Below the pieces are notes generated by a model. The model searched no databases, was not told the origin of the DNA, and was given only the letters and a program-made list of their open reading frames with translations. Positions 3,345 to 56,861 of a stretch of DNA of 56,861 nucleotides are shown piece after piece. This DNA comes from Patescibacteria group bacterium UBA3466 (GTDB lineage Bacteria > Patescibacteriota > Minisyncoccia > Phycocordibacterales > UBA918). The first letter of the stretch is position 1; each line of letters starts with the position of its first letter. The stretch is from the NCBI GenBank assembly GCA_002378195.1, contig DFRJ01000002.1:270816-327676 (forward strand), given 5' to 3'. The position numbers were made by a program, and so were the translations under genes.

Positions 3345-3350
3345 ATGACT

Positions 3351-28218: not shown

Positions 28219-28247
28219 GCAAAAATCGTGGCCTGTGCCACGATTTA
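28219..28247 (-). terminator. intrinsic terminator after the 367-aa gene
   Basis: Minus strand: TAAATCGTGGC-acag-GCCACGATTTTTGC. The stem begins within the TAA stop (28245-28247) and is followed by a T-run. Confidence 0.8.
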
Positions 28248-29348: not shown

Positions 29349-29349
29349 A

Positions 29350-30303: not shown

Positions 30304-30335
30304 GTACAGTTTTATTATTATCTGAAAATTCTAAC

Positions 30336-30379
30336 CAAAAAGCAACAGCCACTGTTGTATAACAGTGGCTGTTTTTTGC
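30336..30379 (-). terminator. intrinsic terminator after the 674-aa gene
   Basis: A perfect 13-bp stem, AACAGCCACTGTT-atac-AACAGTGGCTGTT, followed on the minus strand by GCTTTTTGG. An A-run on the other side gives it a bidirectional shape. Confidence 0.9.
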
Positions 30380-30398
30380 TTATTATGTGGTCTAATTT

Positions 30399-32360: not shown

Positions 32361-32396
32361 ACTAAATAATAAAATAAATAATAAATAACTTTTCTT

Positions 32397-32440
32397 ATAT
32401 TGTACTGGTTTTAAAGTTGACAAGTGCTAGTTATGCACAA
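32397..32440 (-). promoter_or_regulatory. bipartite promoter-like motif TTGTGCATAACT-N23-GTACAATAT upstream of the 674-aa gene
   Basis: TTGTGCATAACT is at 32429-32440 and GTACAATAT at 32397-32405 on the minus strand. This is about 37 nt upstream of ATG 32360 and immediately downstream of the permease stop (32469). Confidence 0.55.
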
Positions 32441-33683: not shown

Positions 33684-33685
33684 AA

Positions 33686-36655: not shown

Positions 36656-39600
36656 CTAATCATCCGAGATTGCTGTAAAGCTATTTACTCCGCTGTGCGG
36701 GTTACTGGCGGTACCAAACGGCACTTCAATTCCCCAATAAATCTGATCGGTCACCAGTGGTGAACTTACGGTTGGCTTATTCAGGTCAACCTCTACATCC
36801 GTACCAATCAAGGTCAGCGCTGAACAGGTAGTACAAACAGCGTAATCAAAGGTTGAGGTGGCGAAGATTTGCTGTGAAGCCGGAATAACAGAAGCGGCAC
36901 CGTCGGTCATGTCTGTTCCGGAGATTTCTACATCGATTGACTCGTTACCGTAGTTTTCTAGTAATGTTTGCGGATTGGTAGCACCAGTGTTTTGATTAAC
37001 ATCAACGGTACCGTAACCAATGGCGTTTTGGACATTCAAGGCACGAAGCGTTAGCAATTCTTGACCAACGGTACTCTCAGCATCAGTACCACCAGACAAG
37101 TCTTCCACTTCCATAAAGGCAAACCATTCTTCACCACCATCGTCATCTGTCGGATCAGCATGGAATTGGAAGTCAGCAGAACACTGTAGGGTACATGAAG
37201 TTGAGCCACAGTTTGTCAAACTACAAGCAGTACCAGTTGCTACATAACAATTGTTGTCGTCTGGAGTACATAGTGCTCCAGCTGAAGTAGTGTAGAAAGT
37301 GGTGGTGGCGTTTCCGATATCAGCCACACCATTAAAGTCAGTCACTGTTGTTGAAGCGATGACAGTTGTAGTTGCTCCAGGCACCAGCGTAATATCTAAG
37401 CCATCGTTTAGAGTCGGAGTATCGAGCACAGGATCAAAGGCTAGAGTTAGTTCAGGCAGTAGCGCGTATGAGTCTAACTCATCTCCACCGTCGGTCACAC
37501 GGAAACAGTATGCATCATTTACCGCGTTAACAGTTAGATTGATGGCGTACTCTAGTTCTGTGTACTGATTTTGTTCAACATCAAGGTTGCCAGTTTGGTT
37601 GCTGGTATTTGCGACCACCTCACCCGCTACAAATTGTCCAGCATCAGTTACCAGATGATCGGTAGTTGGATCACCGTCGGTAGTACTAGCTGAAGTTGTC
37701 ATACAGAGCGCCGATGAACCACAAGAAGCTGCAACTGGTACCTGCACAAACGAACCACCTGACACGGCTTCGCAACTAGGCGCTGTTAGCTTTGGTGCGA
37801 ACTCTAATCGGAAGTTCTGATTTTCAATATCTAAGCCAGTATTCTCAATACCAACTCGCAATCGTGCCGTTTCGCCAAAGTTAAAGCCGCCGGTTGCCGT
37901 GTCTTGCTCCGCCGCCCATGAAGCTCCGCCGTCTACTTGTTCGGCACCGAAGTATGTAGTCGGCTTGCTGTCAGTTCTAGGCCATGACACATAACTATCC
38001 CAACCACCGTTTTGGAACCAGAATGTAAAGCCGATTCCTCCAGAAGTATAAGTGGTGTCATTTGCGGTGGTTGTGGCCTGTAGAGACCCGGTGCTATCAA
38101 ACACTGACACATCTATATCACCCGAGGTTTGCCAATCGACCTCAACTTCGTACCAACCAGTACTCAAGGTAATGTCTGCAGTGGCTAGCTGAGTACCAGT
38201 AGTATCGACATTCTCAACATCTTCAACAATCGCCACCCGATCTCTTAGTGGTGACAAACAAACTGCATAGTTGTCGTTGTATGTCACACCAGCTGGTGGA
38301 TTTGGACCAGTATTTTGTACACCAAACATGGTACAAACCTCATCTCCAGAACCGGCACCCATGTCGACATACTGCATGAAACGGATTATTTCACCTTGCG
38401 CTACTGTAGTATCGAAACGTGCAATACCGTCAGTTGCTTTAGCACTTTCATTACCGGCAGCATCCAAACCATAACCGCCGCCAAAGGCATAGGTGCCGGC
38501 TGTATTAAACAAACCAGTGTCGCCTTCATACTCAGTGATATTGTTGTCTTCAAAATCTTCAGACATATTGAATACATCGCTAGGATCGCCAATATCTGAC
38601 GCCGAGGTGTTGTCGTAATACATATACAGCTCAGTCACTGCGTCTGCGGCCAAGGTTGGCACCTTCACCCACACCGTGGCATCATTACCGGTAGTAAATC
38701 TCTCAATCCAGTATGAAATGGTAGTGGTCCCACTACTGTCAGTGAAACGCAGATCATCAAAGTCAGTCTGCATATCAGCGTCATAATCCACCTCCAACTT
38801 AACAGCCACATCGTTGTAGGTTGACGCATCAACATTAATCACTCTAACTCGTTTACGAGCACCCCAATCAGTGTCGTACCAAGTTAGTGGTGCAGCCCCT
38901 TCCCCTCCATCATCGTTTCGCCAGCGGTAGTTGGTTTGTTCAGTCAGAAGACATGCACTGTCATCCCAACGAACAGAACTACAGTCATCGGTGCCGTCAA
39001 CATCAAATGCTTCACCCCACAGATCACCGATCGCTCCAGTAAAGCTCCAACTGTTGGTTGTGGTGGCATTTAGAGAAACGTTTACTCCACCACTGAATCC
39101 GCCAGCATCGAATCTCGTATCATTGATTACAAACGAAGCATTTGCGTTGATGGTTGTGTCGGTCAGAGTAATGGCGATCGAATTATCTTGAGCCAACTCG
39201 AAGTCACCGTTATCCAGAGAAGTCACATCAATGTTGCCAGTCATTTGCAGTCCGTCAGTATCGAGGTTTCTGAATGAATAGTTGTCAGCATTAATAGTTC
39301 CGCTGGTAGCAAGGAAACTGTAACGACCAGACCCTTGATTAGTCACGGTTGTAGTTCCGTTGGTTGCTCCGATCATATTTAGCACACCGCCATCTACTGA
39401 CACAATTGAACTACTGGCAATGGCCACATTTACATCTCGCGGAGAACCAAGAGCAGTTCCGTCAAAGTCTGTTGCACGGCTCCAATACTCAGTGGTAGTA
39501 GCAATGTGGTAGTCACCAAAGATGTACAGATCGCCATCCACTCCACCATGATCTTGTGAGTAGAATGACGAGGTAATTGGCACCACCGTACTAGTCGCAC

Positions 39601-42600
39601 TAGTGTTCCAAGCACTAATGTCTGAATTGTCACCCAAGGTCAGAATGTTGTAACGCTCGTCTGGAGTGGTCTTAAGATTAATCTCGTACTCATTCGCACC
39701 GTCAAGTACTACGTTTGATCCTTGCCATTCGGTATTAGCTCCATTGAAAGTATTTATGAAAGCTCCCCCAACATACAGGACAGTACCACTACTCATAGTA
39801 AACGAATTACCGGTACTCAAGGTAAAGTTGCTGGTAGTTGTGGCGTCACCCAGGATAGTCCAGCCACCGCCAGCGCCAGCAATCTGTACGCTATAGAAAT
39901 CATTGTTACCTGGGTCAATAAACTCACCAGTATCATCAGAGTTGAACAGTACGGTTCCAGAATTATTCACAAAAGTTCCAGCCGTAGCGTCAAACGAACC
40001 ACCAATAGACAAAGTTCCTGTACCAACCGTCAGTGTTCCTGACTCAACAAACAAGTCACCCAACAGTGCCGCGGAAGCATCAGTTAAAGTATAATCTCCC
40101 GCCCCAGCTTGAATACGGAGGCCGTAGAGATCGCTACCATTTAAGGTAATTGTGTTACCACCACCACTGCCGGAGACAATAATGTCACCACCGGCTTGAG
40201 TCACAGTATCGTTCACAATAAAGTCTTCGCCAATAGCAAAATCTCCAGACGGTAGAGTGACTGTACCAGTCGCCACAATAAATGAATCTGTTGCAGTGGC
40301 ATTCACATCATTGAATGTCCATGAACCACTGTCTATAAACTCGACTCGGTGCGCGTCTGACCCACCAAACTCAACTGTGTTGCCGCCAGCAGTTGAACTA
40401 AAGATCAGGGCACCAGTATTAGCATCGAAGGTTCCGCCAGTATTATCAAATGAGCCACCGACGGTAGTAGTTGCTGACAGTGTAACGCCACCGCTAGTAA
40501 TAGCGAAGTCATTACCGATTGTTGAAACGACATCCGACATTGTCCAATCACCGGCGCCGTTAAATGTCACGTCGTAGAATCCGCCTTCGTTTGTATCCAC
40601 GGTCCTGCCCGCAACAGCCGAAGTAAAGATGAATTCTGAATCGCCTGAAGTGAACACTGCGTCAGTACCCGAGATTAGACTACCGCCAACCGTGTGAACC
40701 TCTCCTGCGTTGCCAGTGAAAATCGCATCATCTCGTAGTTCTAAGGTACCGTCGTAAGCAGAACCACCGCCACCGCCAGGTACGGTAATATTACCGTTTG
40801 GTTCAAATTCTTTAGTATCCCAGACAATCAGCTTGGTATCAGACGGCAGTACCAGCGTGTCTGTAGCGCCTACTTCGACATCAAACAAGACATCAGCATC
40901 ATCGTCGCTATCCCAAGTACCCATATCCGCGATTGTCATTGGCGCACCACTTTCATGCTTAACAATTACACGGTTTTCGTACAGATCAAATCCAGAAATT
41001 GAAGAAATTGGATCTTGTGTAACTGTGACAGCTTTTTCTGGTTCGTTGTCGATGTAGACAGTTAACGTATTACCAAGACCATAGCTAATACCAGTAAATT
41101 GGTAGAAGCCAGTTCCTCCACCAAGACCGTCACCATTACAGGTAGTGGTAGCAAAAGTAGAACCGTTGATACTCAAGAAAACATTACCGGTTGTACTATC
41201 ACAAGCTGCTGAAGTAGAAATTCCTTCATCACTATATACATTTCCGGAGATATTAATGATAGCAGCCGAATCTTGCCAGGTCAGGTAACCAGGATCTCCA
41301 CCCGGATCTACGTCTTTCGCTTCGCCGTCGAGGTTACCAAACACATTCACAAATCGCCAAGCGCTAGCGCTGGTACCGGTAGCAGTAACGTTAAAGGCAT
41401 TGATTGCCGTAGTGGTGGCAAAGCGCATGAAGTTATACTCTTGCGCTGGATTTACATCAATTACTGTCCCCCCGACAGTCATGGCTGAACCACCTGCAAT
41501 CGCTACCTCAAAGTCACCATTTGATAAGTCATTAACTGTCGGTTCGCCACTTAGGATCAGACCTTCAATCGTCGTATCTCGTATTTCATAACGACCCATA
41601 TCCAGATCGGTATCGCCACTGATTTCGAGACTGTAAGTACCGCCGCCATTCACACCAATTGTAGTAGTTGCGGAAGATGAACCAATCACACTCAAACTTC
41701 CTCCTAAGTACCGTACTGAACCTCCGGTCTCGACCAAAACATTTGCCACTCTTGGTACACCCAATGCAGTACCGTCAAAATCTTCTTCATAACTCCAGTG
41801 ATCGTCGTATGAATCACTCACTAGATCACCGAAGATATACAGATCACCCTCTACTCCCGAATGATTCATTGAGTACAAAGAACTGTTTCCGTTTGTAGTC
41901 ACTGAGGTTGAAGTTGAATTCCAGACCCGTGGATGCGTGCCGTCGGCTGTGACAATATTGTTGTAAGTATCACTAACTGACTTACCGTTTATATTAAAGG
42001 CGGTGCCGCTAAACAGACTCAAGGTGGTGCCAGTCCAATCAGTGTCAACATCATCTTCTGTATTGGAGAAGGTGCCACCAACGGCCAAAGTCAAGCCAGG
42101 GTCAAGAACAAATGAACCGGTATTAATAACCATGTTGGCTGTCGCAGTAGCGTTTTCTGTGAAATTGTAATCAGCTGCCCCAAGAACATCTAGCGTAGCA
42201 AAAGATGAGCTACCAGCAGCAATAGTTAGGCTGCCAGCAGCTGCTGACAATTCAACTGTTCCACCATTGGCATTGAAGTTTCCATCATTATCCCAATTAC
42301 CATTAGCAGTGAATGTCTGAATGTCACTAGCATCAACGGTACCAAACCCTCCGATGTAAACATCCCCATTTACACCCACCACCGGATCGTTTGAGTTCAC
42401 GTCCAGCGTTGAAGTACCAATTGCACCGACAATCAAGTCATTCAGTACCTGTAAGCCAGTCACGGGCGCTGTAGCCGCTACGTCGCCACCTCCATCAGTA
42501 TCGATTACTAGATTGTAGTACGGCGTCTGTGTCACATTTGGAGTAGCTCCACTGTAACGCACAGTACTGGTACCCTCTACAAAAGTTCCACTCTCTGCAA

Positions 42601-48600: not shown

Positions 48601-51600
48601 ACTCACCAGTTTCGTTAGACGCATCGAACGAAACTAATTCGTAGGCCAGCTCTGTTTGACCGTCATCTTCAGTAATCCTGATATCGCCACCGTCACTCTT
48701 AACATCAGTCCAGAATTCTGAACCCAACATTGACAAATCAACATACAACGGTAAATCAGACACATCGGCTGGCACTTCATCCTCGTCTACCACCAAAGCG
48801 ATTCTGTCCTGGAAGCCAATATCAGAGTACCAGTCACTCGAACCTGGAGTAATCGGTGGGTACGTTCGATCGTCAGCCACGATTTCAACCGTACCAGTCT
48901 CAGCATTAAAGGTTCCGTTGTTGGTAAAATCACCGGCCACAAAGATAGTGCCAGAGCCTCCCGCCAGTGTGTCGTTTAGGCCAATAATGACATCGTACGC
49001 CGACACATCACCTGACACGGTGACAAATGCATTAGCACCATCAATCAACACATTACCGATATTTTGAGTTACTGGATTGTTATCAGTCCAAGTAAGGCCA
49101 GAACCGCCATCAAATGTAGTGGTTCCCGTACCGCTCCAGAAACCGCCCGATCCGTTGGTGAGACTACCAGCTAGATTAATATCAAAAGTTGATCGATCTA
49201 GAGTTCCGCTTGCCACAGTCAAGTCCCCCGATAGATCAAGATCAGTCGCGATGGTAAAGGTAGCCAGTCCAGCTCCTGAACCAAAGGAAAGGTTATGGAA
49301 ATCTAACGGACTTTCAAGGCTAGTAATAGTTTCCGCTCCGGAGGTGGCAGTCAGATTGATGGTTGAAATATCAGTAGACGATGTTGCATTATTTTCCCAA
49401 GAACCAGAAACGTTAAATACGTTGGCATCAAGCTCTATGATTCCGTCGTTAATGAAGTCATGAGTATCTATGGTTGCGACTGTCGAAGTTGACGGTAGAT
49501 AAATTTGGTTAGCTCCAACATAAAGATTAGCGTACGGACAGGTACCAACTCCACAGACTGTCAAATTGTTTGACACATCGACCTCAAAGAAGACATCCTC
49601 ATCACCAAGCGCTGTACTGTCATTTAACGCCAAGAGCGCATTGGTGGTAGTGCCGATCTCATCAGCGGCAATAGTGAGGTGTTGTTCGTACAAAGTCACA
49701 CCTGTGATGTCTCCCAAACCATCGTAAACAAATGAAGTAACCGCTTCGTCTTCTTCAAGAGCACCGTCTACCCATACTGTCACCACATCACCTTCAAAGG
49801 CGGTCACATTTGTGAGTGTCCACGTGCCAGCAGACACTGAAGCGCTGCCTACCACTGGACTACCGTTTACAGCCGCTCGAATAGTTCCCGCTCCCACATT
49901 GGTAATGCGGTCATACTCTTGCAAGGTACCGGACATGTTCACACCCTCACTCCACTCCAGCTGCCAGTCATCAAGAGTCGGACAATCAGCCCCGGAACAA
50001 TTGAGAGTAGCGAACGCCCTTATTTGCGGATAAAGATTGATATCAACATTTGTCAGATCTATTGGACTTGTACTGGTACCAGAGCTATTACCTGGAATCT
50101 GCCCGTCGGGAATAAGGGCGTAAACACCTTCACTTACCAGGTGCTCCATTTGGATCAAAACTTCACTCGCACCAGGTTCAGTAGCTGACCATGAGAAATT
50201 ATCAAACTTTGGTCCAGCGCCATCACTAAAGATGATGTCCTCACCCGCAATAGTACCAGCCAGACTACCGGTATCGGCTCGGACAATATTTCCAGCACTA
50301 TCTTCAAAGGCTGCGAACGACACAATGTTATCAATGTGACCGTCAGCAGTAGATCCTTGCTCGGAAATACTTACTGTCAAAGTAGTATTATTTTGTGTAC
50401 TACCAGTATCTTTTTGAGCAAAACCACCCTGCGCACCATCATCACCGTTGTTATGAATAACAGTTACTCCAGGAGTTGAACTAAAACCAGAAATGCTAAA
50501 TGAGTTTCCGGCTGCGCCACCTGTTACCACATCCGGTGAATTATTAAATTCAATATTAACTCCGGCGTTGGTACCTGTAGTGGTTGCCATCATCAGCCAG
50601 TCAATGTCCTCACCGCCAGTGTGCGTACTGGCTGAATGACGGCTTTCTGCCAGAGCTAGTCCGATTTGTGACACAGTAACCTCGTCAGCGTAGCCCCCGC
50701 CATCAATATGAGAGCCAATCCAATTTGAATCATTATTAGAAGAAATGGTAGCCAAAGCAGCTGGAGCAGAGTCAAATGCTGGGGAAATGGTCACGAGTTG
50801 AGAGACTCCGTTGGCATAACTTTCAACCTGCTTGGCAGTCACACCCTCTTCAGTACCAGCCACAATCCTAAAGCCGGACCCGCCGTTATCAACCTGCCAG
50901 TCTCCAGCCTCCATGACAATGTAGTCAACATCAGTACTACCAGTAAATGAATCAGTATAATCATCAACTTTAATCTCAAACGACTCAGTTGTCTTGTTGC
51001 GTACTCGAGCAGTTCGTCCATTATTAGTACCATTGAAATTAAACTCAGGCGAAGCTACCACCACCATATCAACATAGGCATTGGTGGTACTTACCGTAGT
51101 CCAATCATTATCAGTCAAAGCCACTGTTCCATATTCACCAATCACATTGGTTGTCTCCACCGAACCGGTGGTTGAAGCGATGGCTCCTGTTAATTCACCT
51201 TGCTGGAATTGTTCTCGAGTGGTCTGGAACCAAGTAGACAAAGTGGTACCGCTATTAATCGTGAACGAATCTGGATCCGACCACGGAGACCAAGAGTTTC
51301 CACCTTGTGGATCACGCGCTCTCGAACGCCACCAGTAGGTATTTCCATCTACAAACGGGGCACCGCCTGGTGTGGTGAAAGTGATTGTGTCACCTGAATT
51401 ATAAGGCGAACTGTCGCCACCATCAGCAATATTGGAGAATTGAGCACTGGTACTAGAGTTGTAGGTGGTAGAGCCACTGCTAAATAGAATGTCGGTACTA
51501 AATGATACCTCGTACTCAAGATCGTCACCCTGAGGATCCGTCGATACAAAGTCAAACACCGGTAATGTATCAGCCGTCTTTTGGTTATCAAACAAATCAC

Positions 51601-54600
51601 CTTGAACTGGCGTCTCTACTCGAAGACCCCAACGTACAGTCCATTCTTGCAATGACACTGTGGTACCTGACAAATTAGCCACTAACCTGATTTCGTTATA
51701 AGTGTCTGTATCTAGATCTAGGAGGTTAATCGGAGCTGTGGTGGTACCGATATCATTACCTGGAATCAAAGAGTTAGGCACTAGAGTCCATGAACCATTA
51801 TCGTTATATTGAACCTGAATCAAATTTGTGCCGGAAGTCTCCGTATCGGTCCAATCCACTTCACCCCACGCATTACCGACTGTCGCGTCATCAAAATCAA
51901 TCGCGGTTCCAATAATAGTCGCCGGTGAGCTAGACAGCGAAGCTGATCCAGACGGAGACGTGGTCGAAACATTAGTCAGCTCATTGGTATTAAACTGATC
52001 GCTGGTTGTTTGATACCACTCAGAAACAGTGATAACAGTGTCGGTAGTGAAGCTAGTCGGTACAGACCAGTCACTAGAAGTCGCCGAACCATCAGGGTCA
52101 CTCGCCCGCACCCTAAACCAGTAAGTGGTAGTTGGACTTAGAGCAACATTTGCGTTGTAACGTATCCGCTGCCCAGACGTAAACGGTGATTTATCTGACG
52201 GTACATCAAGGTTTTCAAAACGTACAAAGTTATCGTCAGAGTTTTCATCAATATCCACTGATCCAAAGTTGATATCGGTATCCACTTGTACCTGATAGTG
52301 AATATCATCGCCCGCAATGTCGGTAGCTGAAAATTCCAGAACCGGAGTCAAAACAGTAGTCTTTTCATTATCGAAGAAAAGCAGGTTGTCTGGAGTATTT
52401 GGTGGCCCAACCGTCTCAAGCTCTGGGTATAGAGTGTAGCTATTTAGAGCAGCTCCCTCAGCTCTTGCCATTCGGAAACAGTAGTTAGTATTAATATCTA
52501 CATTAGTTGCTTCTAGCACCCAGTCATATTCAATAACTTCTCCCGGCGGCACTTCTGCTGGCAGGAAGTCAGAGAAATTACGCTCCTCATAAGTACCAAA
52601 AATAGTGGAAGAAGCCAAGGTGGTACTGGATAAAGTTGTTCCATCCGGCACTAAAGCGTTGTTATATCCGGAGAAAGCGGCAGTGGTACTTCCCTGCTCA
52701 CCAATATCAAACCAGCTAGTCGCCAGACTACACTGCGAACTGGCCGCCGTTGCGTACTGCAACTTAAAGGCTGTTGAATTCTCTGTTCCAGTCGCGTTAC
52801 TGCCTTGCAAATTCAGCCTTAGCCGCAGGATATCGCCGTCTTCAACTGCTCCAGCCCCAGTAATAGCATCACCTTCGGCCACGGTCTCTGCTCCACCAAG
52901 CGGCCAACTGCTGGTTGGGGTTGTTTGATTAGCGTTTTCATACCAAGCAAATGATAGCTGGTCGTACTCAGCATCATTGGCCAATTCTTGAGGCAAGAAC
53001 AACAGATCAGATGTAAATATCTGGCTAAACTTTCGTGCCTGCACCGGACCAACTACGTTCTTCTCATCCTCACCGCCAGCCACTTCAGTATCTTCATAAA
53101 TCAGGAAGAACGGCACGTCGTTAGTGGCGATGACAGTATGTTCGCCACTATAGAAGGTGCCTTGGTTGGTACCAGTATTACTATCACCAATTCGTAAAGT
53201 TCCTGGATCAGTCGCTGTTGGGGTACAGGTACCAGAATCAATTTCTGTGCCAGTACTATCTACCAGAGAGATATTCACTGAACCGAAGCGCGGTGAACAG
53301 GCCACGGCAATAAACTGACTGTCGTTGGTTAATGCATACTGGGTACTAAACTCCATCTCCGGCCAGAACACGATACTTTCGTTACCGTCAGAGTCGGCCT
53401 GCTGGATAGCGGTCATATACTCCGTCTGTCCTGTCAAACGAACGCTGTCACCAGTAAACTGTGTACCAGCTGAACAGTTTGTACCACCTTGGTATTCACC
53501 TTGCAGAATACCAGTTTCGGAACCACTACCTCCACCGGAACAGAATACTGACGGATCCGGATTGTCTGCCAATGCCGTCATGTAATAGTTGTTTGAATCG
53601 AATCCGAACAAATCACGTGTAGTTGGCGGATAAGCTACCAGACCGTCTTGAGCTGTACCACCAGAACCACGATGCATGATCAGAACCGGACTAGTTGCCT
53701 CGAAGATAGCCGCGTCCGTACCTGCTGGACTACCAGCGTTTACTGTTGCAGTTGTACCCGTTGCGATATTGACCGTCTCACGCAAGGTGGTTCGCTCATA
53801 TGTCATCAAGGTCGTACTCGCGAATGGCGCATGCACGTAATATTGCTCAGTTCCTCGGTTGGTTGGAATAGCGTGAGTAGTAGTAGCAAAACTAATCGGA
53901 ACAATAGTGTCGCTACCATCAGTTGATGAGTTGTTAGTCACAGTACCAGAAATTGGCCCCAAAATACTGATGACTGACTCGCCATCAAAGGTACTAAAGG
54001 TCGTACGTTCACCAGCATTAAGCGGCACAGCTGCACCGCCGTCTATAGCCACTTCGTTATTATCTATCAAACTAACAATAGACACCTGATTGGCACCGCT
54101 GTCATCAACCACATAGAAAATGTCAGTCGAGGTACTATATGAGAAAGTAGCCAACTCATCACTAGCAGAAGAAGCTCCAGAATTGCCATAGTACAACCAA
54201 ATAATAGTATCTTCCCCAGCCGCCAACTCTTCTACCTGCACCCATATGTCTGCTTCTTCAGCTGTATCGTCAAAGTGCTGCACCCAGAAATCTAGTTCAA
54301 CAAATTCTGTAACCTGTAGCGTTTCCGCAGAAGATGTAGACATGAATGAATTTGGATCCACCAGGTTAGCGCCTTCGACTCGTGCCCAGGCTTCAGTTCG
54401 TGTAGTACTAGCAATACGGATTTCATCCAACAAACCGATAAATTCATTGGTGGCTTGGAAGTTACCAATCGCGGTTTGCTCTTGACCAATCACTAGACCG
54501 TTCACATCGATATCTAACGCATCGATCGCTTGAGTATCTGGGTTTTCAGTATCTGGAATACCATTTAGATAAAAATCAAATTCGTCAGTTGCGTCTTCAC

Positions 54601-56861
54601 CGACAGTCATGAAGTAGTCCCACTCGTCGTCACCCCAGGATTGCCCATCGTCTAGTGCAGTACTTTCTGTTCCCACACTATGCACCCAGAAGAATTCGTC
54701 GGCCCCTGAACCATCAAACTCAAGTTGTAACCTAAACTCGTCATCTTCAACTGCATTAGCACCACTCAAGATAGTACGTTCGTCTGTCGCTGACACGACT
54801 GGCACCTTATAGAAACCAGACACAGTTACATCCTGCACTCCATCGAGCACTTGGTATGGCAGGTTTACGTAGTCTGACGAAGAATCACCCAGTTCAAGAC
54901 CGCCTCCAATTCGTCCAACATTATCATTGGATGAAGTTTCATCGTCCGCATGGTACTGATTTACAGTCGAATCCTTGTATAGTTCGGCGTTACCGGTACC
55001 TGAAGCGTCTTCCTCAAAGTGGTAAACAGCTTGGAATCCATTAGTCCAAACATTCTCTGAGCCAAAAGTATCTGCTCGATCGTAAGCCAAAGCATCTTGA
55101 TTCTCAAAGTAAACGTAGAAATCGTTCGAGCCAGAATCAGTAAGATCAGCTCTGAAGTACAACTCCCCTGTTTCAGATCCTGTATCTATACCGACTAGTT
55201 CAATCGGTAACTCAGTGACACCGTCACCACTAGTAACGCGGATATCCCGTCCGTCGCTCGCTACTCTAGTGAAGAATTCAGACCCAAGCATCGACAGATC
55301 TAGATAAACCGGATAATCAGTAAGTGAATCTGGAATATTTTCGGCCGGTATCGTCACTCGCTGTCGCCCTTCCCAGCTCGTACTGTACCAGCTTAGTGAA
55401 GTAGCATTGTTTGGAGTTTGACTTTGGCGCGCTACATAGAACTGCTCTGGGTTGCCCAAGTTAATAGATTCAGCTCGTGTCCAAGCTGGTACTCTATCGA
55501 CAGTTGCAATACGCAAAGCATCCACGAAACCTTGCCAGTTTCCACCACCACCATCACGACCCATCTGGAATCCACCGGAAGTATTTGAAGGATTATTGAT
55601 TGTTTGCACTTCTTCATCTACTAAGAATCCGTCTTCGTAGACATAGTTATTGTCTCCTGCAGTTGTTGTACCGATAGTGGCAAAACCATGCCAGACAGTT
55701 GGGTCTAAATAAGTTCGATTGAGCCAAGTCGCAGTCGGACCAAAGTAGAATCGACCGTTAGTAGCGCTGTACCACGGCTCATAACGAATAATCTCAGGAC
55801 TAGCGCCAGTACCCCACTGATACAAAGCTTCGCCATTGAGCACGCTCATGAAATACGAACCTGTAATGTTCAGTGGTGACCCCGGAGAGAAATCCCACGT
55901 CGAACTCGCCAGCCAACCAGCTCCGGCCGTGAAGTCGATCGCTGTACCAAGCTGACCAGAAGTAGTAGCCAAGGCAACTGAGTTAACCGTCAGATCCTGA
56001 CCGTTTCCAGTTTCGTCAGTAATGGTATTACCGATTGTTGTTGGATCATCAGTAAAGTGGTAAACCGCATCATAGCTTGCCCACACGGCTTCAGAACCTA
56101 GCGGGTCAGTACTGGCGAGTAGAGATAGAGATGTGTCGCCATAATACACATAGAAAGTATTAGCAGCGTTGGCAGCTACCACCGGCGCTAAGAAGTGCAG
56201 CTCGCCGGTTTCAGCTGCTGTGTCGATCTCCGCTAAATCAAACGGAATAAAAGTACCATCACTTGTTGTTACTCGAATATCAGAACCATCACTCTGTACC
56301 TCCGTCCAGAATCCGCTATCAAAACTATCCAAAGCAACCGAGACTGGGAAATCAGTCAGATCAGCATCGACGGTCAGAGCTGGTATTTCAACTGGGACTC
56401 TACCGGTGAAGTCAAAATCGAGCCAGTTATTGATGGCAGTATCGGCATCACTGAAGTTACCAGCCATTTCTTGAATGAATCTAATATCAGAACCATCGCT
56501 ATTAACATTGGTCCAGAAGTCAGTCAAAGAACTATCTAGTTCGAAGAAAATCTGATACTCGGTTAAATCCGCGCCAGTGTTATTTGGCACACTAATTGGC
56601 ATACGGTAAGTCCACTCAGAAGTCCAGAATGGGTCAAGCAGACCATATTCACTTCCACCAATTGCTTCGATCCAGTACTCTCCACTTGAGAAAGCAGGGA
56701 AAGATATATCCATCTTGAAGTACAAGGTTTCGCCTGGTCTGATCAATTGGCCAGAAGGGGTATGGGCTCGCACCTCAAAATTATCGGGAACTTCCTTCTT
56801 GTCTGGGCCAAATCCGACAAACTCAGCCACCCTCTGGAAGATTCCAGGCTGAGGCAGGCTA
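36656..56861 (-). CDS. giant surface protein, more than 6,724 aa, 5' end probably outside the window
   Basis: Uninterrupted reading frame from the TAG at 36656-36658 to the window edge. The track start at 56830 is a GTG. The 10 in-frame codons upstream (SLPQPGIFQR) contain no stop, and there is no signal peptide at the called start. Contents are five DUF2341-LamG cassettes, FN3-like units, long beta-helix-like G/T/S/N repeats, three super-repeats, WRNDDG/YCFR modules and the type-2 C-terminal domain. Confidence 0.92.
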   Translation of the reverse strand, partial: SLPQPGIFQRVAEFVGFGPDKKEVPDNFEVRAHTPSGQLIRPGETLYFKMDISFPAFSSGEYWIEAIGGSEYGLLDPFWTSEWTYRMPISVPNNTGADLTEYQIFFELDSSLTDFWTNVNSDGSDIRFIQEMAGNFSDADTAINNWLDFDFTGRVPVEIPALTVDADLTDFPVSVALDSFDSGFWTEVQSDGSDIRVTTSDGTFIPFDLAEIDTAAETGELHFLAPVVAANAANTFYVYYGDTSLSLLASTDPLGSEAVWASYDAVYHFTDDPTTIGNTITDETGNGQDLTVNSVALATTSGQLGTAIDFTAGAGWLASSTWDFSPGSPLNITGSYFMSVLNGEALYQWGTGASPEIIRYEPWYSATNGRFYFGPTATWLNRTYLDPTVWHGFATIGTTTAGDNNYVYEDGFLVDEEVQTINNPSNTSGGFQMGRDGGGGNWQGFVDALRIATVDRVPAWTRAESINLGNPEQFYVARQSQTPNNATSLSWYSTSWEGRQRVTIPAENIPDSLTDYPVYLDLSMLGSEFFTRVASDGRDIRVTSGDGVTELPIELVGIDTGSETGELYFRADLTDSGSNDFYVYFENQDALAYDRADTFGSENVWTNGFQAVYHFEEDASGTGNAELYKDSTVNQYHADDETSSNDNVGRIGGGLELGDSSSDYVNLPYQVLDGVQDVTVSGFYKVPVVSATDERTILSGANAVEDDEFRLQLEFDGSGADEFFWVHSVGTESTALDDGQSWGDDEWDYFMTVGEDATDEFDFYLNGIPDTENPDTQAIDALDIDVNGLVIGQEQTAIGNFQATNEFIGLLDEIRIASTTRTEAWARVEGANLVDPNSFMSTSSAETLQVTEFVELDFWVQHFDDTAEEADIWVQVEELAAGEDTIIWLYYGNSGASSASDELATFSYSTSTDIFYVVDDSGANQVSIVSLIDNNEVAIDGGAAVPLNAGERTTFSTFDGESVISILGPISGTVTNNSSTDGSDTIVPISFATTTHAIPTNRGTEQYYVHAPFASTTLMTYERTTLRETVNIATGTTATVNAGSPAGTDAAIFEATSPVLIMHRGSGGTAQDGLVAYPPTTRDLFGFDSNNYYMTALADNPDPSVFCSGGGSGSETGILQGEYQGGTNCSAGTQFTGDSVRLTGQTEYMTAIQQADSDGNESIVFWPEMEFSTQYALTNDSQFIAVACSPRFGSVNISLVDSTGTEIDSGTCTPTATDPGTLRIGDSNTGTNQGTFYSGEHTVIATNDVPFFLIYEDTEVAGGEDEKNVVGPVQARKFSQIFTSDLLFLPQELANDAEYDQLSFAWYENANQTTPTSSWPLGGAETVAEGDAITGAGAVEDGDILRLRLNLQGSNATGTENSTAFKLQYATAASSQCSLATSWFDIGEQGSTTAAFSGYNNALVPDGTTLSSTTLASSTIFGTYEERNFSDFLPAEVPPGEVIEYDWVLEATNVDINTNYCFRMARAEGAALNSYTLYPELETVGPPNTPDNLLFFDNEKTTVLTPVLEFSATDIAGDDIHYQVQVDTDINFGSVDIDENSDDNFVRFENLDVPSDKSPFTSGQRIRYNANVALSPTTTYWFRVRASDPDGSATSSDWSVPTSFTTDTVITVSEWYQTTSDQFNTNELTNVSTTSPSGSASLSSSPATIIGTAIDFDDATVGNAWGEVDWTDTETSGTNLIQVQYNDNGSWTLVPNSLIPGNDIGTTTAPINLLDLDTDTYNEIRLVANLSGTTVSLQEWTVRWGLRVETPVQGDLFDNQKTADTLPVFDFVSTDPQGDDLEYEVSFSTDILFSSGSTTYNSSTSAQFSNIADGGDSSPYNSGDTITFTTPGGAPFVDGNTYWWRSRARDPQGGNSWSPWSDPDSFTINSGTTLSTWFQTTREQFQQGELTGAIASTTGSVETTNVIGEYGTVALTDNDWTTVSTTNAYVDMVVVASPEFNFNGTNNGRTARVRNKTTESFEIKVDDYTDSFTGSTDVDYIVMEAGDWQVDNGGSGFRIVAGTEEGVTAKQVESYANGVSQLVTISPAFDSAPAALATISSNNDSNWIGSHIDGGGYADEVTVSQIGLALAESRHSASTHTGGEDIDWLMMATTTGTNAGVNIEFNNSPDVVTGGAAGNSFSISGFSSTPGVTVIHNNGDDGAQGGFAQKDTGSTQNNTTLTVSISEQGSTADGHIDNIVSFAAFEDSAGNIVRADTGSLAGTIAGEDIIFSDGAGPKFDNFSWSATEPGASEVLIQMEHLVSEGVYALIPDGQIPGNSSGTSTSPIDLTNVDINLYPQIRAFATLNCSGADCPTLDDWQLEWSEGVNMSGTLQEYDRITNVGAGTIRAAVNGSPVVGSASVSAGTWTLTNVTAFEGDVVTVWVDGALEEDEAVTSFVYDGLGDITGVTLYEQHLTIAADEIGTTTNALLALNDSTALGDEDVFFEVDVSNNLTVCGVGTCPYANLYVGANQIYLPSTSTVATIDTHDFINDGIIELDANVFNVSGSWENNATSSTDISTINLTATSGAETITSLESPLDFHNLSFGSGAGLATFTIATDLDLSGDLTVASGTLDRSTFDINLAGSLTNGSGGFWSGTGTTTFDGGSGLTWTDNNPVTQNIGNVLIDGANAFVTVSGDVSAYDVIIGLNDTLAGGSGTIFVAGDFTNNGTFNAETGTVEIVADDRTYPPITPGSSDWYSDIGFQDRIALVVDEDEVPADVSDLPLYVDLSMLGSEFWTDVKSDGGDIRITEDDGQTELAYELVSFDASNETGELHFLANSISGTASTTFYIYYNNATATAYAVDDPYGRNTVWNDFEAVYHFEDDPTSVSNTISDASGNGNDLLVEGAGLATTTGQMGLAIDMSVSAGLLRDSSFTWEAGDPLKTSGWYLLGAAVNEAIWQFGTGAQPDQLYFEPWDSGTNRGQYVFGNTTGTTYTFLPRDTLNYTHFTTIGVTSTAESNLVYHDGILRETQSQTVVDPSNTNANGLQIGRTGTGGSFSGQIDELRFSKTNRDADWVATEENNQSNPDIFFSTSSVEAYQPPVVIDEATHNITSGGSAFNNLTFDDATTTPAFTEPSVTLNGDFTIATGTVSLPTGVMTVGGDFTNNGFFQHNNAEVEFTTGGTATITLNGTEFFNSFYDVTFDGSGTIIFDDANATATNDVVFNDGDVVLPSGVFAIGGSMQTPGGAFDANGGTVKFTSPSSENVTAGGSSFNDVIFGNGVVGFNWYDLSWGKRSVIEISPESITESLSAFPVYVDLSTLGATFWSDVDVSGVDIRVTQSDGQTEVPVELVSIDTVGETGELYFRANSLSNVSTSTFYLYYDNPAADAVASTTAFGAQNVWTNDYLAVYHFEDEGQSGRDNVAEYKDSTSNANDAEDDTNATGTTGLIGGGVEFDQANHVNGTDTFDHLNLPIGLIDNRAEWTISTWYQTSSGGGNDPTFVSGYGGENELIVRLENSTLMETYSNGSSNQGGQVAIADIGDGVWRQFVYTYSDDSASDFAGYFYNGAEVYTDTNVVGATLTINADGLIFGAEQDGAVDSSTGIGEALDGFVDEVRFSSTTRSDAWIAAEFATLDDPASFYSVTDEALEDVAPVFTLNEATTDVDGNVTINGSQLVAPTTNFTIGGSALNIGGTYDPNNATTTFDSNDLGETVAFGDGAFWNLSFNGVGGGWIVATNTVNNNLSLITGADYLQSPNTTMTVEGIFNNSFASSSTTWTDSTLVLSGGDYVVTGRLDSGDDYAVVEVSSSTNIVIWNSTISSSTISDSSSIYMPDYGLTNGELRIFGNYTQSNNAEYWSYNTDFDGTDISGSPRQVDVRIASGSVVTIETDFEIFGDSSASTTVDVLTAGTYQLIASSSNLSAQYFDVTGTGVNGFELLNGVTVGTFSDGSFDIASGTSAMTVDKSTVEVQPSGNYSDFYFNSIAGDQFNVTASGTPNGFWLFTGGGGDRYGESYDNDDGDPGAIQWDDSNYAISISGVVYADDGVTPETAPICNGVTQNVTVQVVGSGTFTAPCNPLDGSYTVSGVNYTGDPKIVTYLNSEATDGTVQVELMDEATGSGVGSPFSVTRPSVIDDSVLIAMVAKDDDPAVSPPAGWTAISTLGVAADDDLFTGIWYRVVPDAATEPTSYSFTSADGGEHYHYWIGSFVNVDTTTPIDVSNGWTQLVDDTTPSTTPVTTTVPGTYVLSAWYVDNDAAVTTPDTTDWDYRFRESVTADNNSFTVISKKFATATTTDTVEMTDVAGGRDPHVGTFALNPAVAATASGTAFASAVTQTPIGASEVQQFNDITLTGDASGAGDVVALGSISVTAPATQDGDVMIAVIGREDEPTITAPAGWNLVAEIGNATQNDMYSGVWYKIITDAASEPASYSFTNDDTSGTEQYSYWIGSYSNVDTSNVMDVSPVSWTKLFNANPDATASSITTETDNARVFAAWYVVADTAVDTPASPWVTLVEDLWGGSQNGRSLNVSTQVLATAGASGDADLSAVGTQEVHTIQFALRPTPISVATELTDMDLYRNRVIVRHEDSTPLSIADITFDSSDDTDLRFTVSTSSSPDTLDVLAGSGLYVWNDMEFAPNGEVTMLGGGNDLADGSMTIGSDATFTATTTVDLTVGGSMYVESGGVFAGASSTVEFTATNTAQQIGAAGSSTITFYDLEFTGVGGDWAVQTPIVSQTDILVSTGTVSGISDITVQAGSLTGDGLVDMTGGTVTINESNTFGGNQDWTFNNLTLGSGGVAGITVPATNGTTTIRNVLTISTAHFLDAYGSVWDLQGNGAVFAESGTFVEGTSTVRYSGATPNVTQTPYYNLVIDTDGGGDVAATAPVTGLQVLNDLIVGAIGTSTLDVNSNDPVVGVNGDVYIGGFGTVDASDIQTFTANGNWDNDGNFNANGGTVELSAAAGSLTIAAGSSSFATLDVLGAADYNFTENATATANMVINTGSFVLDPGLTLAVGGTFSNTEDDVDTDWTGTTLSLFSGTAFNINGKSVSDTYNNIVTADGTHPRVWNSTSTSVTTNGNSSLYSMNHSGVEGDLYIFGDLVSDSYDDHWSYEEDFDGTALGVPRVANVLVETGGSVRYLGGSLSVIGSSSATTTIGVNGGGTYSLEISGDTDLDMGRYEIRDTTIEGLILSGEPTVNDLSNGDFEVAIAGGSAMTVGGTVIDVNPAQEYNFMRFATTTAINAFNVTATGTSASAWRFVNVFGNLDGEAKDVDPGGDPGYLTWQDSAAIINISGNVYSDEGISTSAACDSTTGNVFLSINGSTFATTTCNGDGLGGGTGFYQFTGISYGLGNTLTVYIDNEPEKAVTVTQDPISSISGFDLYENRVIVKHESGAPMTIADMGTWDSDDDADVLFDVEVGATDTLVLPSDTKLIVWDTKEFEPNGNITVPGGGGGSAYDGTLELRDDAIFTGNAGEVHTVGGSLISGTDAVFTSGDSEFIFTSAVAGRTVDTNEGGFYDVTFNGAGDWTMSDVVSTIGNDFAITSGGVTLSATTTVGGSFDNTGGTFDANTGALIFSSTAGGNTVEFGGSDAHRVEFIDSGSWTFNDVNATATDSFIVATGTVTLPSGDFAIGEDFIVNDTVTQAGGDIIVSGSGGGNTITLNGSDLYGLRIQAGAGDYTLTDASAALLGDLFVESGTLTVGTGTLSIGGSFDATAGTFVNNSGTVLFNSDDTGEFIDPGNNDFYSVQIAGAGGGWTILGDATTTSNFTLSTGNSFTMSSGTVLYVGGAFINTFNGANTEWQGSNVVLDGANEYEINLKTTPDERYNILTLGDNSDISAWNTSATSTVVPITSSFYSQDHGGVDGDLYIFGDYHIATTTEYWSRATDFDGTALGSPRDVNVAIASSSIVSVDGGVLNMIGATNGTTTVTNQGSGRYSFLATSGTINADNYSFRNLDTDGLQMTGNIDVTSLDNGDFELAQDNSIAITLTDTTINANASFVINDTRFDAGGFSGGVNVSLNATTTNSWSFTGAIGDLWGEAFDVDGTDDCSSVRWDDSACLLTEQTNYRWRNDDGGEGAAPLTWYDTDWGARKRVRVINVDASTYNDVAVKLEVDYDADMQTDFDDLRFTDSSGTTTISYWIERFTTGNDATVWVKVPTLAADAVTELYMYYDNTSASDIGDPSDVFNMSEDFEDNNITEYEGDTGLFNTAGTYAFGGGYGLDAAGNESAKATDGIARFDTTVAQGEIIRFMQYVDMGAGSGDEVCTMFGVQNTGPNPPAGVTYNDNYAVCLSPLRDRVAIVEDVENVDTTGTQLATADITLSTGWYEVEVDWQTSGDIDVSVFDSTGSLQATTTANDTTYTSGGIGFTFWFQNGGWDSYVSWPRTDSKPTTYFGAEQVDGGASWAAEQDTATGGFNFGETARLRVGIENTGLDIENQNFRLEFAPKLTAPSCEAVSGGSFVQVPVAASCGSSALCMTTSASTTDGDPTTDHLVTDAGQFVAGEVVANTSNQTGNLDVEQNQYTELEYAINLTVNAVNDAYCFRVTDGGDELDSYALLPELTLAFDPVLDTPTLNDGLDITLVPGATTTVIASTTVTDFNGVADIGNATTTFYTTSAGALCTPDDNNCYVATGTACSLTNCGSTSCTLQCSADFQFHADPTDDDGGEEWFAFMEVEDLSGGTDAESTVGQELLTLRALNVQNAIGYGTVDVNQNTGATNPQTLLENYGNESIDVEISGTDMTDGAASVIPASQQIFATSTFDYAVCTTCSALTLIGTDVEVDLNKPTVSSPLVTDQIYWGIEVPFGTASNPHSGVNSFTAISDD
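36659..37436 (-). other. shared C-terminal domain, type 2, copy in the giant ORF
   Basis: See 30402-31378. The protein ends ...QIYWGIEVPFGTASNPHSGVNSFTAISDD. Confidence 0.65.
37440..37930 (-). repeat. WRNDDG...YCFR-type module (giant ORF, C-proximal body)
   Basis: ETARLRVGIENTG...FRLEFAPKLTAPSCEAV...ELEYAINL...AYCFRVTDGGDELDSYALLPELTL. The matching N-terminal strand NYRWRNDDGGEG lies about 320 aa upstream (near 38,920), on the other side of cassette 5. Confidence 0.6.
37935..38884 (-). repeat. DUF2341-LamG-like cassette 5
   Basis: WYDTDWGARKRVRVINVD...FDDLRFTDSSGTTTISYWIERF...ATVWVKVPTLAADAVTELYMYYDN, followed by a jelly-roll-like segment. Confidence 0.6.
38950..39745 (-). repeat. super-repeat R3 (~255 aa)
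   Basis: TEWQGSNVVLDG...YSQDHGGVDGDLYIFGDYHIATTTEYWSRATDFDGTALGSPRDVNVAI...LDNGDFELA...VRWDDS. Confidence 0.75.
41250..42055 (-). repeat. super-repeat R2 (~255 aa)
   Basis: TDWTGTTLSLFSG...YSMNHSGVEGDLYIFGDLVSDSYDDHWSYEEDFDGTALGVPRVANVLV...LSNGDFEVA...LTWQDS. Confidence 0.75.
43440..44708 (-). repeat. tandem pair of ~200-aa PAGW modules
   Basis: DDSVLIAMVAKDDDPAVSPPAGWTAIS...FTGIWYRVVPDAATEPTSYSFTS...HYWIGSFVNVDTTTPIDV parallels QDGDVMIAVIGREDEPTITAPAGWNLVA...YSGVWYKIITDAASEPASYSFTN...YSYWIGSYSNVDTSNVMDV. Confidence 0.7.
45010..45790 (-). repeat. super-repeat R1 (~255 aa)
   Basis: TTWTDSTLVLSGG...YMPDYGLTNGELRIFGNYTQSNNAEYWSYNTDFDGTDISGSPRQVDVRI...FSDGSFDIA...IQWDDS. The W-to-W span is 745 nt, against 759 nt in R2 and R3. 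Confidence 0.75.
46165..47245 (-). repeat. DUF2341-LamG-like cassette 4
   Basis: WYDLSWGKRSVIEISPESITESLSAFPVYVDLSTLGATFWSDVDVSGVDIRVTQSDGQTEVPVELVSID...TFYLYYDN...AVYHFED...VDEVRFSSTTRSDAWI. Confidence 0.65.
47825..48836 (-). repeat. DUF2341-LamG-like cassette 3
   Basis: DRIALVVDEDEVPADVSDLPLYVDLSMLGSEFWTDVKSDGGDIRITEDDGQTELAYELVSFD...TFYIYYNN...AVYHFEDDP...IDELRFSKTNRDADWV. Confidence 0.65.
52412..52955 (-). repeat. WRNDDG...YCFR-type module (giant ORF, N-proximal)
   Basis: FAWYENANQTTP...ILRLRLNLQGSN...FKLQYATAASSQCSLATSWFDIG...IEYDWVLE...NYCFRMARAEGAALNSYTLYPELET. Confidence 0.65.
54341..55376 (-). repeat. DUF2341-LamG-like cassette 2
   Basis: WEGRQRVTIPAENIPDSLTDYPVYLDLSMLGSEFFTRVASDGRDIRVTSGDGVTELPIELVGID...DFYVYFEN...AVYHFEED...LDEIRIASTTRTEAWA. 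Confidence 0.65.
55435..56614 (-). repeat. DUF2341-LamG-like cassette 1 (with duplicated DUF2341 head)
   Basis: WTYRMPISVPNNTGADLTEYQIFFEL...GSDIRFIQ, then GRVPVEIPALTVDADLTDFPVSVALDSFDSGFWTEVQSDGSDIRVTTSDGTFIPFDLAEID...TFYVYYGD...AVYHFTDDP...VDALRIATVDRVPAWT. Confidence 0.65.

Follow-up and report, generated by a model that had tools for sequence, protein, structure and literature searches.

A 7,532-residue candidate adhesion fibre encoded by a marine patescibacterium

Proteins of more than 4,000 amino acids (aa) that carry DUF2341 and/or FhaB have been noted before in Patescibacteria and were proposed as adhesion or host-interaction factors (PMC11809585). DUF2341 has also been linked to pilus-associated adhesins and to archaeal type IV pilus (T4P) loci (PMC4858521), and the DPANN nanohaloarchaea encode the giant SPEARE proteins, such as SVXNc_0300 with 9,409 aa (PMC10266531). 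The gene described here lies at the end of a stretch of 56,861 nucleotides (nt) of contig DFRJ01000002.1, referred to as the window, and falls in the first of these classes: the genome is patescibacterial, the product has 7,532 aa and DUF2341 is present, while an FhaB-type domain was not found with Pfam. The protein is probably an N-terminally exported cell-surface adhesion fibre of an ultrasmall marine patescibacterium. This reading agrees with the proposals made for the DUF2341/FhaB proteins of Patescibacteria (PMC11809585), for the pilus DUF2341 proteins (PMC4858521) and for the LamG-rich and giant proteins of DPANN (PMC10266531).

Patescibacteria account for a large part of bacterial diversity, and a life attached to other microbes is assumed for them. 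The giant gene is a concrete candidate for the attachment structure of uncultured marine lineages, because it is intact and collinear across genomes about 45% apart in protein sequence and lies within a conserved cluster of surface-protein genes. It would also take up a considerable part of the small genome to be expected in this group.

The open frame and its orthologues

The giant open reading frame (ORF) is located on the minus strand, in the frame that starts at base 56860, and comprises 6,734 sense codons closed by a TAG stop at 36656-36658. Residue i of the window ORF begins at base 56860-3(i-1).

36656..56860, minus: giant ORF, C-terminal 6,734 codons and stop (open frame; longer Logan contig; orthologues)

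In the ORF listing the gene appears as 36656..56830 on the minus strand, with a GTG start and 6,724 aa, and the ten sense codons upstream of it read SLPQPGIFQR. The first-pass annotation of this DNA had described the same start and the same ten codons, as well as a frame free of stops from 36659 to 56861 on an unstated strand, and all of this was found to be exact, the strand being minus. It had further placed the true N-terminus outside the window, in a protein of more than 6,724 aa. Logan contig SRR7617327_15244 (91,589 bp) bears this out: the product called from it has 7,532 aa, so about 798 N-terminal residues fall beyond the window end and the full-length protein reaches about 0.8 MDa. 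The other two minus frames over 36656-56861 meet their first stop at codon 0 and codon 38. Since the stop density in the other frames is 3-7%, a chance origin is excluded, the probability of an open run of 6,734 codons being below 1e-80 by our own arithmetic. A reading of the ORF on the plus strand was rejected, with 205-472 stops per plus frame over the same interval.

A frame of this length might still be an artefact, produced when repeats were joined chimerically during assembly, or a pseudogene in decay whose frame is open by accident. Assemblies from three sources agree with the window over their overlaps: the Logan contig shows 100% DNA identity across 21,578 nt, including 9,980 nt of the giant gene, JGI contig 3300020433 shows 100% identity over 9.3 kb and ENA contig ERZ840367 shows 99.98% over 8.2 kb. 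The three were found via the downstream FN3 gene, and a substantial part of the giant gene is covered by the Logan contig only. Inside the ORF no DNA repeat exceeded 61 nt or 72% identity, the only tandem being a trivial one of 21 nt, and the internal protein repeats are 25-45% identical to each other (self-BLAST), which argues against collapse, expansion or chimeric joining of repeats. Alignment of 3,318 codons with the L004 orthologue (described below) gave a nonsynonymous divergence (dN) of 0.39 with saturated synonymous divergence (dS), which points to purifying selection on the frame, and two long or full-length collinear orthologues are available. In favour of an artefact or a dead gene are the low coverage of one assembly (3.5x per contig name) and the orthologous region of the Paceibacterota metagenome-assembled genome (MAG) GCA_041389005.1 (L087; JAWKSR010000001.1, 1-22000), made of about 20 overlapping ORFs of 46-1,224 aa on the same strand, the last of them adjoining the FN3 gene. 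This split region could be either a decaying copy or the product of assembly indel errors. For the genome of the window, assembly agreement, orthologues, the DNA-repeat search and dN/dS answer the doubt, raised in the first-pass annotation, that the ORF might prove to be a chimera or a pseudogene. By these comparisons the gene is intact and of expressed type, neither a pseudogene nor an assembly chimera, and the opposite explanation is already close to refuted.

The orthologue on a 288-kb JGI contig (L004) is collinear with the window protein, with 55% identity over 3,375 aa and 66 gap positions; per 300-codon block the identity ranges from 46 to 65%. A second orthologue of 7,440 aa (P0050) was obtained by searching 1.84 billion representatives with aa 4020-4500 as query, and aligns end to end with the giant protein at 54% identity. 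Word-indexed protein searches recovered neither the 7,532-aa product nor any fragment identical to it. The position of the stop is conserved, because the alignments of five homologues (P0045, P0047, P0048, P0049 and P0050) end no more than 1-2 residues from the C-terminal residue. In GCA_964462155.1 (L086) the orthologous giant gene is interrupted by a 100-N scaffold gap at 3331-3430; its frame has no stop between bases 196 and 8139 (2,647 codons) and can be presumed to run on past the contig end, and the database protein P0045 (1,567 aa) comprises only the part after the gap. A partial homologue of modules A and C (see below), P0043 (RKZ93988.1, 1,431 aa), is labelled Gammaproteobacteria at NCBI and is likely a mis-binned patescibacterial fragment, since its contig has only 4.3 kb.

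The housekeeping genes of the window, encoding UvrB, Tgt, an FKBP isomerase and a redoxin, are bacterial. UvrB is nearest to MAGs of Patescibacteria, or candidate phyla radiation (CPR), with 63-74% identity (74, 67, 66, 66 and 65% among others), and other phyla reach at most 57%. The homologue P0042 (MEZ4200046.1) is annotated as Candidatus Paceibacterota, and one close homologue is labelled TARA_072_MES_0.22-3, which indicates marine mesopelagic water and a small size fraction. The host thus appears to be a marine patescibacterium similar to Paceibacterota, an assignment that is tentative below phylum level; the host group is reported as monoderm (PMC12102498). The ORFs of the window are read in the standard code, all 26 plausible genes are on the minus strand and the GC skew is negative throughout. 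The tRNA and Rfam scans of 1-56861 gave no match, and no rRNA gene was found there.

Export, domains and structural models

The window ORF is rich in threonine (12.4%), glycine (10.6%), serine (9.3%) and aspartate (9.1%) and poor in lysine (0.6%) and arginine (2.1%), as had been noticed at first reading. Its 6,734 aa have an isoelectric point (pI) of 4.05, with 2.7% of lysine plus arginine and 13.8% of aspartate plus glutamate. In these residues no 19-residue window reaches a hydropathy of 1.6 and no LPXTG-like motif ([LI]P.[TSA][GNA]) was found, the C-terminal end being ...NSFTAISDD. The 30 cysteines are mostly arranged in closely spaced pairs (for instance 2288/2293, 2436/2441, 3972/3993, 5220/5241 and 5960/5970), a pattern that fits the disulphides of an exported protein. 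The N-terminus of P0050 comprises a basic stretch followed by a single hydrophobic segment, MIRNNAKRTRKYVVYALLAALILGGAFSSYA-NL, and the same arrangement was identified in the L004 orthologue, whose N-terminus is KKFGTVITTFVLLLAVLLPYVHAQ and whose hydrophobic segment is KNKKFGTVITTFVLLLAVLLPYVHA-QL. An equivalent Sec-type N-terminus is presumed for the protein of the window. The acidic pI, the lack of a hydrophobic segment in the 6,734 aa, the paired cysteines and the signal-type segments of the orthologues bear out the extracellular character claimed in the first-pass annotation, and export in particular is supported by the orthologue N-termini, the acidity and the cysteine pairs.

In P0050 the hydrophobic segment is followed by a low-complexity stretch of about 300 aa rich in T, S, A, D and E. 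The gene of P0050 starts 115 nt past the preceding gene and has a Shine-Dalgarno-like AGGTGAGG. The space between the cohesin and giant genes of L085, a complete orthologous locus, contains a perfect inverted repeat of 10 bp (GTATACCGCG ... CGCGGTATAC; 9920-9965), a possible terminator or regulatory hairpin that precedes the Shine-Dalgarno-like AGGTGAGG by about 40 nt.

Pfam matches account for about 15% of the protein, and its recurrent unit is a DUF2341 followed by a LamG/ConA-like domain, which occurs four times; further DUF2341 copies are present without a Pfam-recognised LamG behind them. Whole-protein scores for DUF2341 (PF10102) are 121.3 and 83.8 bits against a gathering threshold of 23.4, and for Laminin_G_3 (PF13385) 52.7 bits against 27.6, with individual copies at 32.1 and 44.7. 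Pfam thus supports five copies of DUF2341 and three of Laminin_G_3, the fourth LamG-like copy being assigned by 45% paralogy only. The features of the protein are the following.

aa ~84-127, minus: partial DUF2341-like paralogue (self-BLAST)
56111..56290, minus: DUF2341, aa 191-250 (PF10102, 26.4 bits, cut-off 23.4)
55421..56023, minus: LamG-like region, aa ~280-480 (45% identity to aa 2701-2986, which has a Pfam Laminin_G_3 match)
55091..55348, minus: DUF2341-like paralogue, aa ~505-590 (self-BLAST, 43-46% to aa 145-278 and 2669-2811, E 1e-27 to 1e-35; no Pfam match in its tile)
54389..54886, minus: LamG/ConA-like domain, aa 659-824 (best Laminin_G_3 stretch; weak Pentaxin match to the same residues)
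54140..54298, minus: DUF2341, aa 855-907 (PF10102, 51.1 bits)
51188..52297, minus: two FN3/Ig-like domains, aa ~1489-1629 and 1750-1891 (Ig_Rha78A_N, 44 bits, 2 stretches, around aa 1522-1606 and 1750-1891)
within 51188..52297, minus: domain of ~105 aa between the Ig/FN3 pair, aa 1640-1744, recurring at aa 2195-2303 (self-BLAST; identities in this region 41% and 35%)
48446..48694, minus: DUF2341, aa 2723-2805 (PF10102, 34.7 bits)
47867..48202, minus: LamG, aa 2887-2998 (PF13385, 32.1 bits)
47243..47776, minus: beta-solenoid-like repeats, aa 3029-3206, ~25-aa rungs in ~75-aa units (self-BLAST offset 75 aa; sequence display)
46859..47104, minus: DUF2341, aa 3253-3334 (PF10102, 25.7 bits)
46217..46705, minus: LamG, aa 3386-3548 (PF13385, 44.7 bits)
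44801..46183, minus: module A copy 1, ~400-460 aa, all-beta, aa 3560-4020 (AlphaFold model; no Pfam match)
43427..44779, minus: module B, two copies, aa 4028-4234 and 4265-4478 (43% identity between copies)
42929..43423, minus: module C copy 1, ~160 aa, aa 4480-4644 (39% identity to copy 2; model confidence 60-80)
41042..42316, minus: module A copy 2, aa 4849-5273 (31-38% identity to copy 1)
40535-41011, minus: module C copy 2, aa 5284-5442 (39% identity to copy 1)
38945..40093, minus: module A copy 3, aa 5590-5972 (self-BLAST, 31-39%)
38537..38764, minus: DUF2341, aa 6033-6108 (PF10102, 69.4 bits)
36659..37930, minus: C-terminal region, Ig-like aa 6311-6471 (by self-BLAST a paralogue of aa 1322-1481) and then a cysteine-rich tail, aa 6472-6734 (self-BLAST; cysteine positions)

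Two suggestions of the first-pass annotation were confirmed in part. It had described multiple LamG heads; LamG/ConA-like domains above the Pfam cut-off are present, but they lie inside the chain, each behind a DUF2341, so they are not heads. It had also described degenerate repeats of about 20-25 aa. A real repeat of ~25 aa, arranged in threes (~75 aa), was identified at aa 3029-3206 and at aa 5385-5720, the latter ahead of module A copy 3, but the motif given for it (GG.F.N.G.F) occurs literally only once, at aa 3081.

Outside Pfam, the NCBIfam scan of the giant protein gave no match, the PDB sequence search with both halves gave none at E <= 1, and the PHROGs scan of five regions of the protein and of one orthologue N-terminus gave none. 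The part of the chain that lacks matches is nevertheless clearly modular, being made of diverged repeats. Module B is a member of an undescribed family of ~200 aa. At E <= 1e-3 the library yielded 384 representatives of it, a good number of which are stand-alone proteins of ~230 aa that start with MAI... and have neither a signal peptide nor a Pfam match. Its conserved motifs are PAGW, EPASYTF and GVD.TTP.D. The module B pair is present in P0050 and absent from the fragment P0040. No Pfam or PDB match was found for module B, its profile against PDB giving chance-level results only (titin, E 0.06). Modules A, B and C are well-delimited, unannotated beta-rich units suitable for structural work.

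The AlphaFold model of aa 3560-4660, built with 14 sequences, shows module A as made up entirely of evenly spaced short beta strands, at a predicted local distance difference test (pLDDT) value mostly of 80-95, and periodic short strands at pLDDT 60-80 in module C. Confident structural coverage amounts to about 7% of the chain. The best PDB matches of module A (Foldseek) are all right-handed beta-helix proteins, namely the HK620, Sf6 and P22 tailspikes, antigen 43, tapirin, PL6 lyases and Awp3b, with E 0.02-1, probability <= 0.25 and template modelling (TM) score <= 0.2. Among the viral predicted structures of BFVD three matches reached E <= 1e-3 with TM around 0.1; one of them is named, as a chlorovirus glycoprotein-repeat protein, and pectate-lyase-like phage proteins appear further down with weaker E-values. 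The beta-helix resemblance proposed at first reading therefore has in its favour a confident all-beta model of aa 3560-4020 and top matches that are uniformly beta-helix, but none is significant against PDB (E >= 0.02, TM <= 0.2). A solenoid fold for module A is plausible but not established.

These matches also bear on an enzymatic function, in which the protein, displayed on the surface, would degrade polysaccharide or attack cell walls to breach a host capsule or wall. Catalysis would then be due to the solenoid modules, in the manner of tailspike depolymerases or pectate lyases, and the LamG domains would serve as carbohydrate-binding modules. The best structural matches of module A include phage tailspike depolymerases, PL6 lyases and pectate-lyase-like phage proteins; some of the stand-alone relatives of module B (5/20) match phrog_13624, annotated as 'hydrolase', 6/20 matching phrog_3329; and a link with cell-wall degradation has been drawn for giant genes of predatory bacteria (bioRxiv 10.1101/2023.11.21.568195). 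However, the structural similarity is weak (PDB E >= 0.02, TM <= 0.2), non-enzymatic beta-helix adhesins (Ag43, tapirin and Awp3b) appear among the same matches, glycoside hydrolase, lyase and peptidase families were not found at any threshold with Pfam or NCBIfam, and no catalytic motif was identified. A degradative role is accordingly regarded as improbable.

Gene neighbourhood and proposed function

The genes that follow the giant gene, all on the minus strand, comprise a secreted FN3 protein, an ATP-binding cassette (ABC) transporter and a series of surface proteins.

35058..36635, minus: secreted 525-aa FN3/Pur_ac_phosph_N-like protein (Pfam; starts 20 nt after the giant stop)
32469..35008, minus: MacB-type ABC transporter, ATPase 33686-35008 and MacB_PCD/FtsX permease 32469-33683 (Pfam; same order in L085 and L086)
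28245..32423, minus: surface-protein genes of 674 aa, of 317 aa (signal peptide and C-terminal anchor) and of 367 aa (DUF4215/Big_6/dockerin) (same order in L085 and L086)

The FN3 gene occupies the same position in L085, L086 and L087, and no terminator-like site was found on the minus strand at the junction between the giant and FN3 genes. The 317-aa protein and its counterpart in L085 share 68% identity. Farther downstream there are more secreted proteins, a cohesin protein, a 2,059-aa protein without Pfam match and, at the end of the run, a WxLIP_PGBD/LytR_C protein. Almost all of about 17 consecutive downstream genes encode products of acidic pI with a signal or anchor at the N-terminus. 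The order in L085 is dockerin, HSP20, cohesin, giant gene, FN3, ABC ATPase, MacB/FtsX, 631 aa and 316 aa; L004 has the upstream genes of L085, and L086 (GCA_964462155.1) the downstream genes of the window. By these comparisons the neighbourhood is conserved across three or four genomes whose giant proteins differ by 45%.

Cohesin and dockerin genes flank the giant gene in three patescibacterial genomes (window 22346-23089 and 28245-29348, minus; L004 3506-5410 and 6198-7745; L085 5930-7798 and 8353-9885), which suggests that an ultrasmall, non-cellulolytic bacterium has a surface assembly based on cohesin and dockerin. Nearby is the gene of a weak WxLIP_PGBD (peptidoglycan-binding) protein (window 11437-13095; L004 1937-3031). 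The 2,059-aa protein (14059-20238, minus; N-terminal anchor, no Pfam match) and a secreted protein of 389 aa (26799-27968, minus) have in common a C-terminal domain of ~190 aa, with 32% identity and E 8e-10, that ends ...Y(V/T)A(V/T)PVF; it resembles WxL-type wall-association domains in position and pattern, and has no Pfam match. No similarity was found between this domain and the C-terminus of the giant protein. At the far end of the window, an 855-aa protein (777-3344, minus) combines a lysine-rich N-terminus with two hydrophobic segments and an Ig-like domain of the Big_13 family, and a 269-aa protein (3351-4160, minus) has a Pfam match to a receiver domain only, in two stretches, no output domain being detected. 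Positions 1-776 contain no ORF >= 100 aa, many minus-strand stops and no Rfam or tRNA match.

Given its DUF2341 content, the protein might be a tip or anchor adhesin associated with a type IV pilus and similar to PilY1 or MshQ, a role already suggested for other proteins with this domain. This would be in line with the DUF2341 domains reported in pilus-associated adhesins and archaeal T4P loci (PMC4858521), and with the report that T4P are widespread and mediate episymbiosis in Saccharibacteria (PMC12206443). Against it, genes for pilin, PilB/C/T or prepilin peptidase were not found in 36.6 kb downstream, nor in 10 kb upstream in the two orthologous loci L004 and L085, and a shared G-F/T-x-x-E prepilin motif was not seen by eye in the orthologue N-termini. 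A pilus-borne protein is therefore considered very unlikely.

The adhesion fibre held to be probable here would work as follows. A single signal or anchor segment at the N-terminus, seen in both orthologues with an available N-terminus, would direct the protein into the Sec pathway for export, and the ~300-aa stretch rich in T, S, A, D and E (seen in P0050) may serve as a flexible spacer through the cell envelope. The remaining ~7,000 acidic, beta-rich residues are predicted to form an elongated string of separately folded units: DUF2341-LamG pairs, Ig/FN3-like domains, three solenoid-like modules of ~400 aa and other diverged repeats. The ConA/LamG-type domains, and possibly the solenoid modules, would bind glycans or glycoproteins on another cell or particle, and this binding would tether the ultrasmall cell to its host, the exported protein itself being kept in place by its N-terminus or through partner proteins. 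The neighbouring cohesin/dockerin proteins, secreted FN3 protein and MacB-type ABC transporter would probably assemble or service the same surface structure, as their synteny suggests. In the fibre-like LamG adhesin of the first-pass annotation, the reality of the ORF, its extracellular character and its LamG/ConA-like domains have stood, whereas adhesion itself would follow from the domain content and the lifestyle of the group.

Several observations weigh against this function. The signal peptide of the window protein is taken over from its orthologues, and about 85% of the chain has no family match in the Pfam, NCBIfam, PHROGs and PDB sequence scans. The module A model has no match in PDB at E <= 1e-3 (Foldseek); within the model of aa 3560-4660 module B (pLDDT about 30) was too poor and was left unused, as was a model of aa 855-1900 from a 5-sequence alignment (mean pLDDT 41.7). 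The split region of L087 is a further point. Finally, the conservation of 54-55% is fairly even from end to end, and looks more like that of a structural protein than that of a fast-evolving host-recognition factor.

The last point leads to a structural protein of the envelope or coat, S-layer-like or part of a surface matrix. In that case a network of cohesins and dockerins would hold it, and it would give the cell surface shape or protection without binding any specific ligand. The even conservation (46-65% per 300-codon block) with collinear architecture, the cohesin and dockerin genes beside the giant gene in three genomes and the run of ~17 secreted or anchored acidic proteins downstream all suit such a role. 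Nevertheless, SLH, S-layer, cohesin or dockerin domains were not found inside the giant protein with Pfam, LamG and DUF2341 are typical of binding proteins, and a single chain of 0.8 MDa would be unusual as a lattice subunit. A coat protein is considered unlikely, and the adhesion fibre is retained as the probable function.

A more speculative extension of the fibre, to which only a small probability is given, is that the protein is the core of a dedicated, conserved attachment apparatus of marine Paceibacterota. The Sec-exported fibre would be decorated or tethered via the flanking cohesin-dockerin pairs and serviced by the MacB-type mechanotransmission ABC transporter and the FN3 protein, in an arrangement similar to a cellulosome, non-cellulolytic and devoted to episymbiosis. 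Module B would be in this case a new binding or hydrolytic domain common with phage proteins.

Comparison with known systems

The giant adhesins of type I secretion systems (T1SS) with RTX repeats, LapA, SiiE and MpIBP (PMC4083281, PMC8092209), are likewise megadalton acidic fibres of beta-sandwich domains with lectin modules and an ABC transporter gene nearby. They have near-identical tandem repeats, RTX repeats, a C-terminal secretion signal and an HlyB-type ABC transporter with a membrane fusion protein (MFP) and TolC. In contrast, the giant protein has diverged repeats, an N-terminal signal and an ABC transporter of the MacB/FtsX type. HemolysinCabind or any other RTX family was not found with Pfam, and the orthologues have an N-terminal signal-type segment. 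The neighbouring transporter comprises ABC_tran and MacB_PCD/FtsX, and no MFP gene was identified among the downstream neighbours scanned by Pfam.

Other modes of anchoring and assembly were compared in the same way. A sortase anchor is not indicated, neither LPXTG motif nor hydrophobic segment being found in the 6,734 aa. For FhaB-type proteins and autotransporters, no two-partner secretion (TPS) domain or beta-barrel was found with Pfam in the window protein and the 800 N-terminal residues of an orthologue. For the cellulosome scaffoldins, cohesin and dockerin were not found inside the giant protein and were identified only in the neighbouring genes (Pfam). As for T4P clusters, pilus genes are absent from 36.6 kb downstream and, in L004 and L085, from 10 kb upstream. 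Beta-helix adhesins and tailspikes (Ag43, tapirin, HK620/P22/Sf6) are the nearest structural neighbours of module A, with repeats of ~25 aa made of short strands; they differ in that the matches are below significance, and no sequence-family match or autotransporter barrel was found.

The SPEARE proteins (PMC10266531) are similar in belonging to an ultrasmall episymbiont and in having an N-terminal Sec signal and a giant acidic ectodomain (pI ~4.0-4.1) that is Ig-like and beta-rich, and LamG proteins are implicated there in host attachment. They belong to another domain of life, no sequence relationship is detectable, and they end in a membrane segment and a VirB4/TraG-like ATPase, whereas here no membrane segment was found in 6,734 aa and no ATPase family in the C-terminal Pfam tiles.

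The closest system comprises the proteins of the Patescibacterium danicum study (PMC11809585), which are alike in phylum, size class, DUF2341, proposed adhesion or host role and in being mostly unannotated. They differ in the FhaB/haemagglutinin domain, not detected here, and in that full-length homologues were not found in that study, whereas collinear orthologues at 54-55% identity and a conserved neighbourhood were identified here. The concepts are left unchanged, because giant DUF2341-bearing proteins had already been reported in the phylum. What appears to be undescribed in the literature searched are the collinear full-length orthologues, the conserved neighbourhood of cohesin/dockerin, FN3 and MacB genes, and modules A-C.

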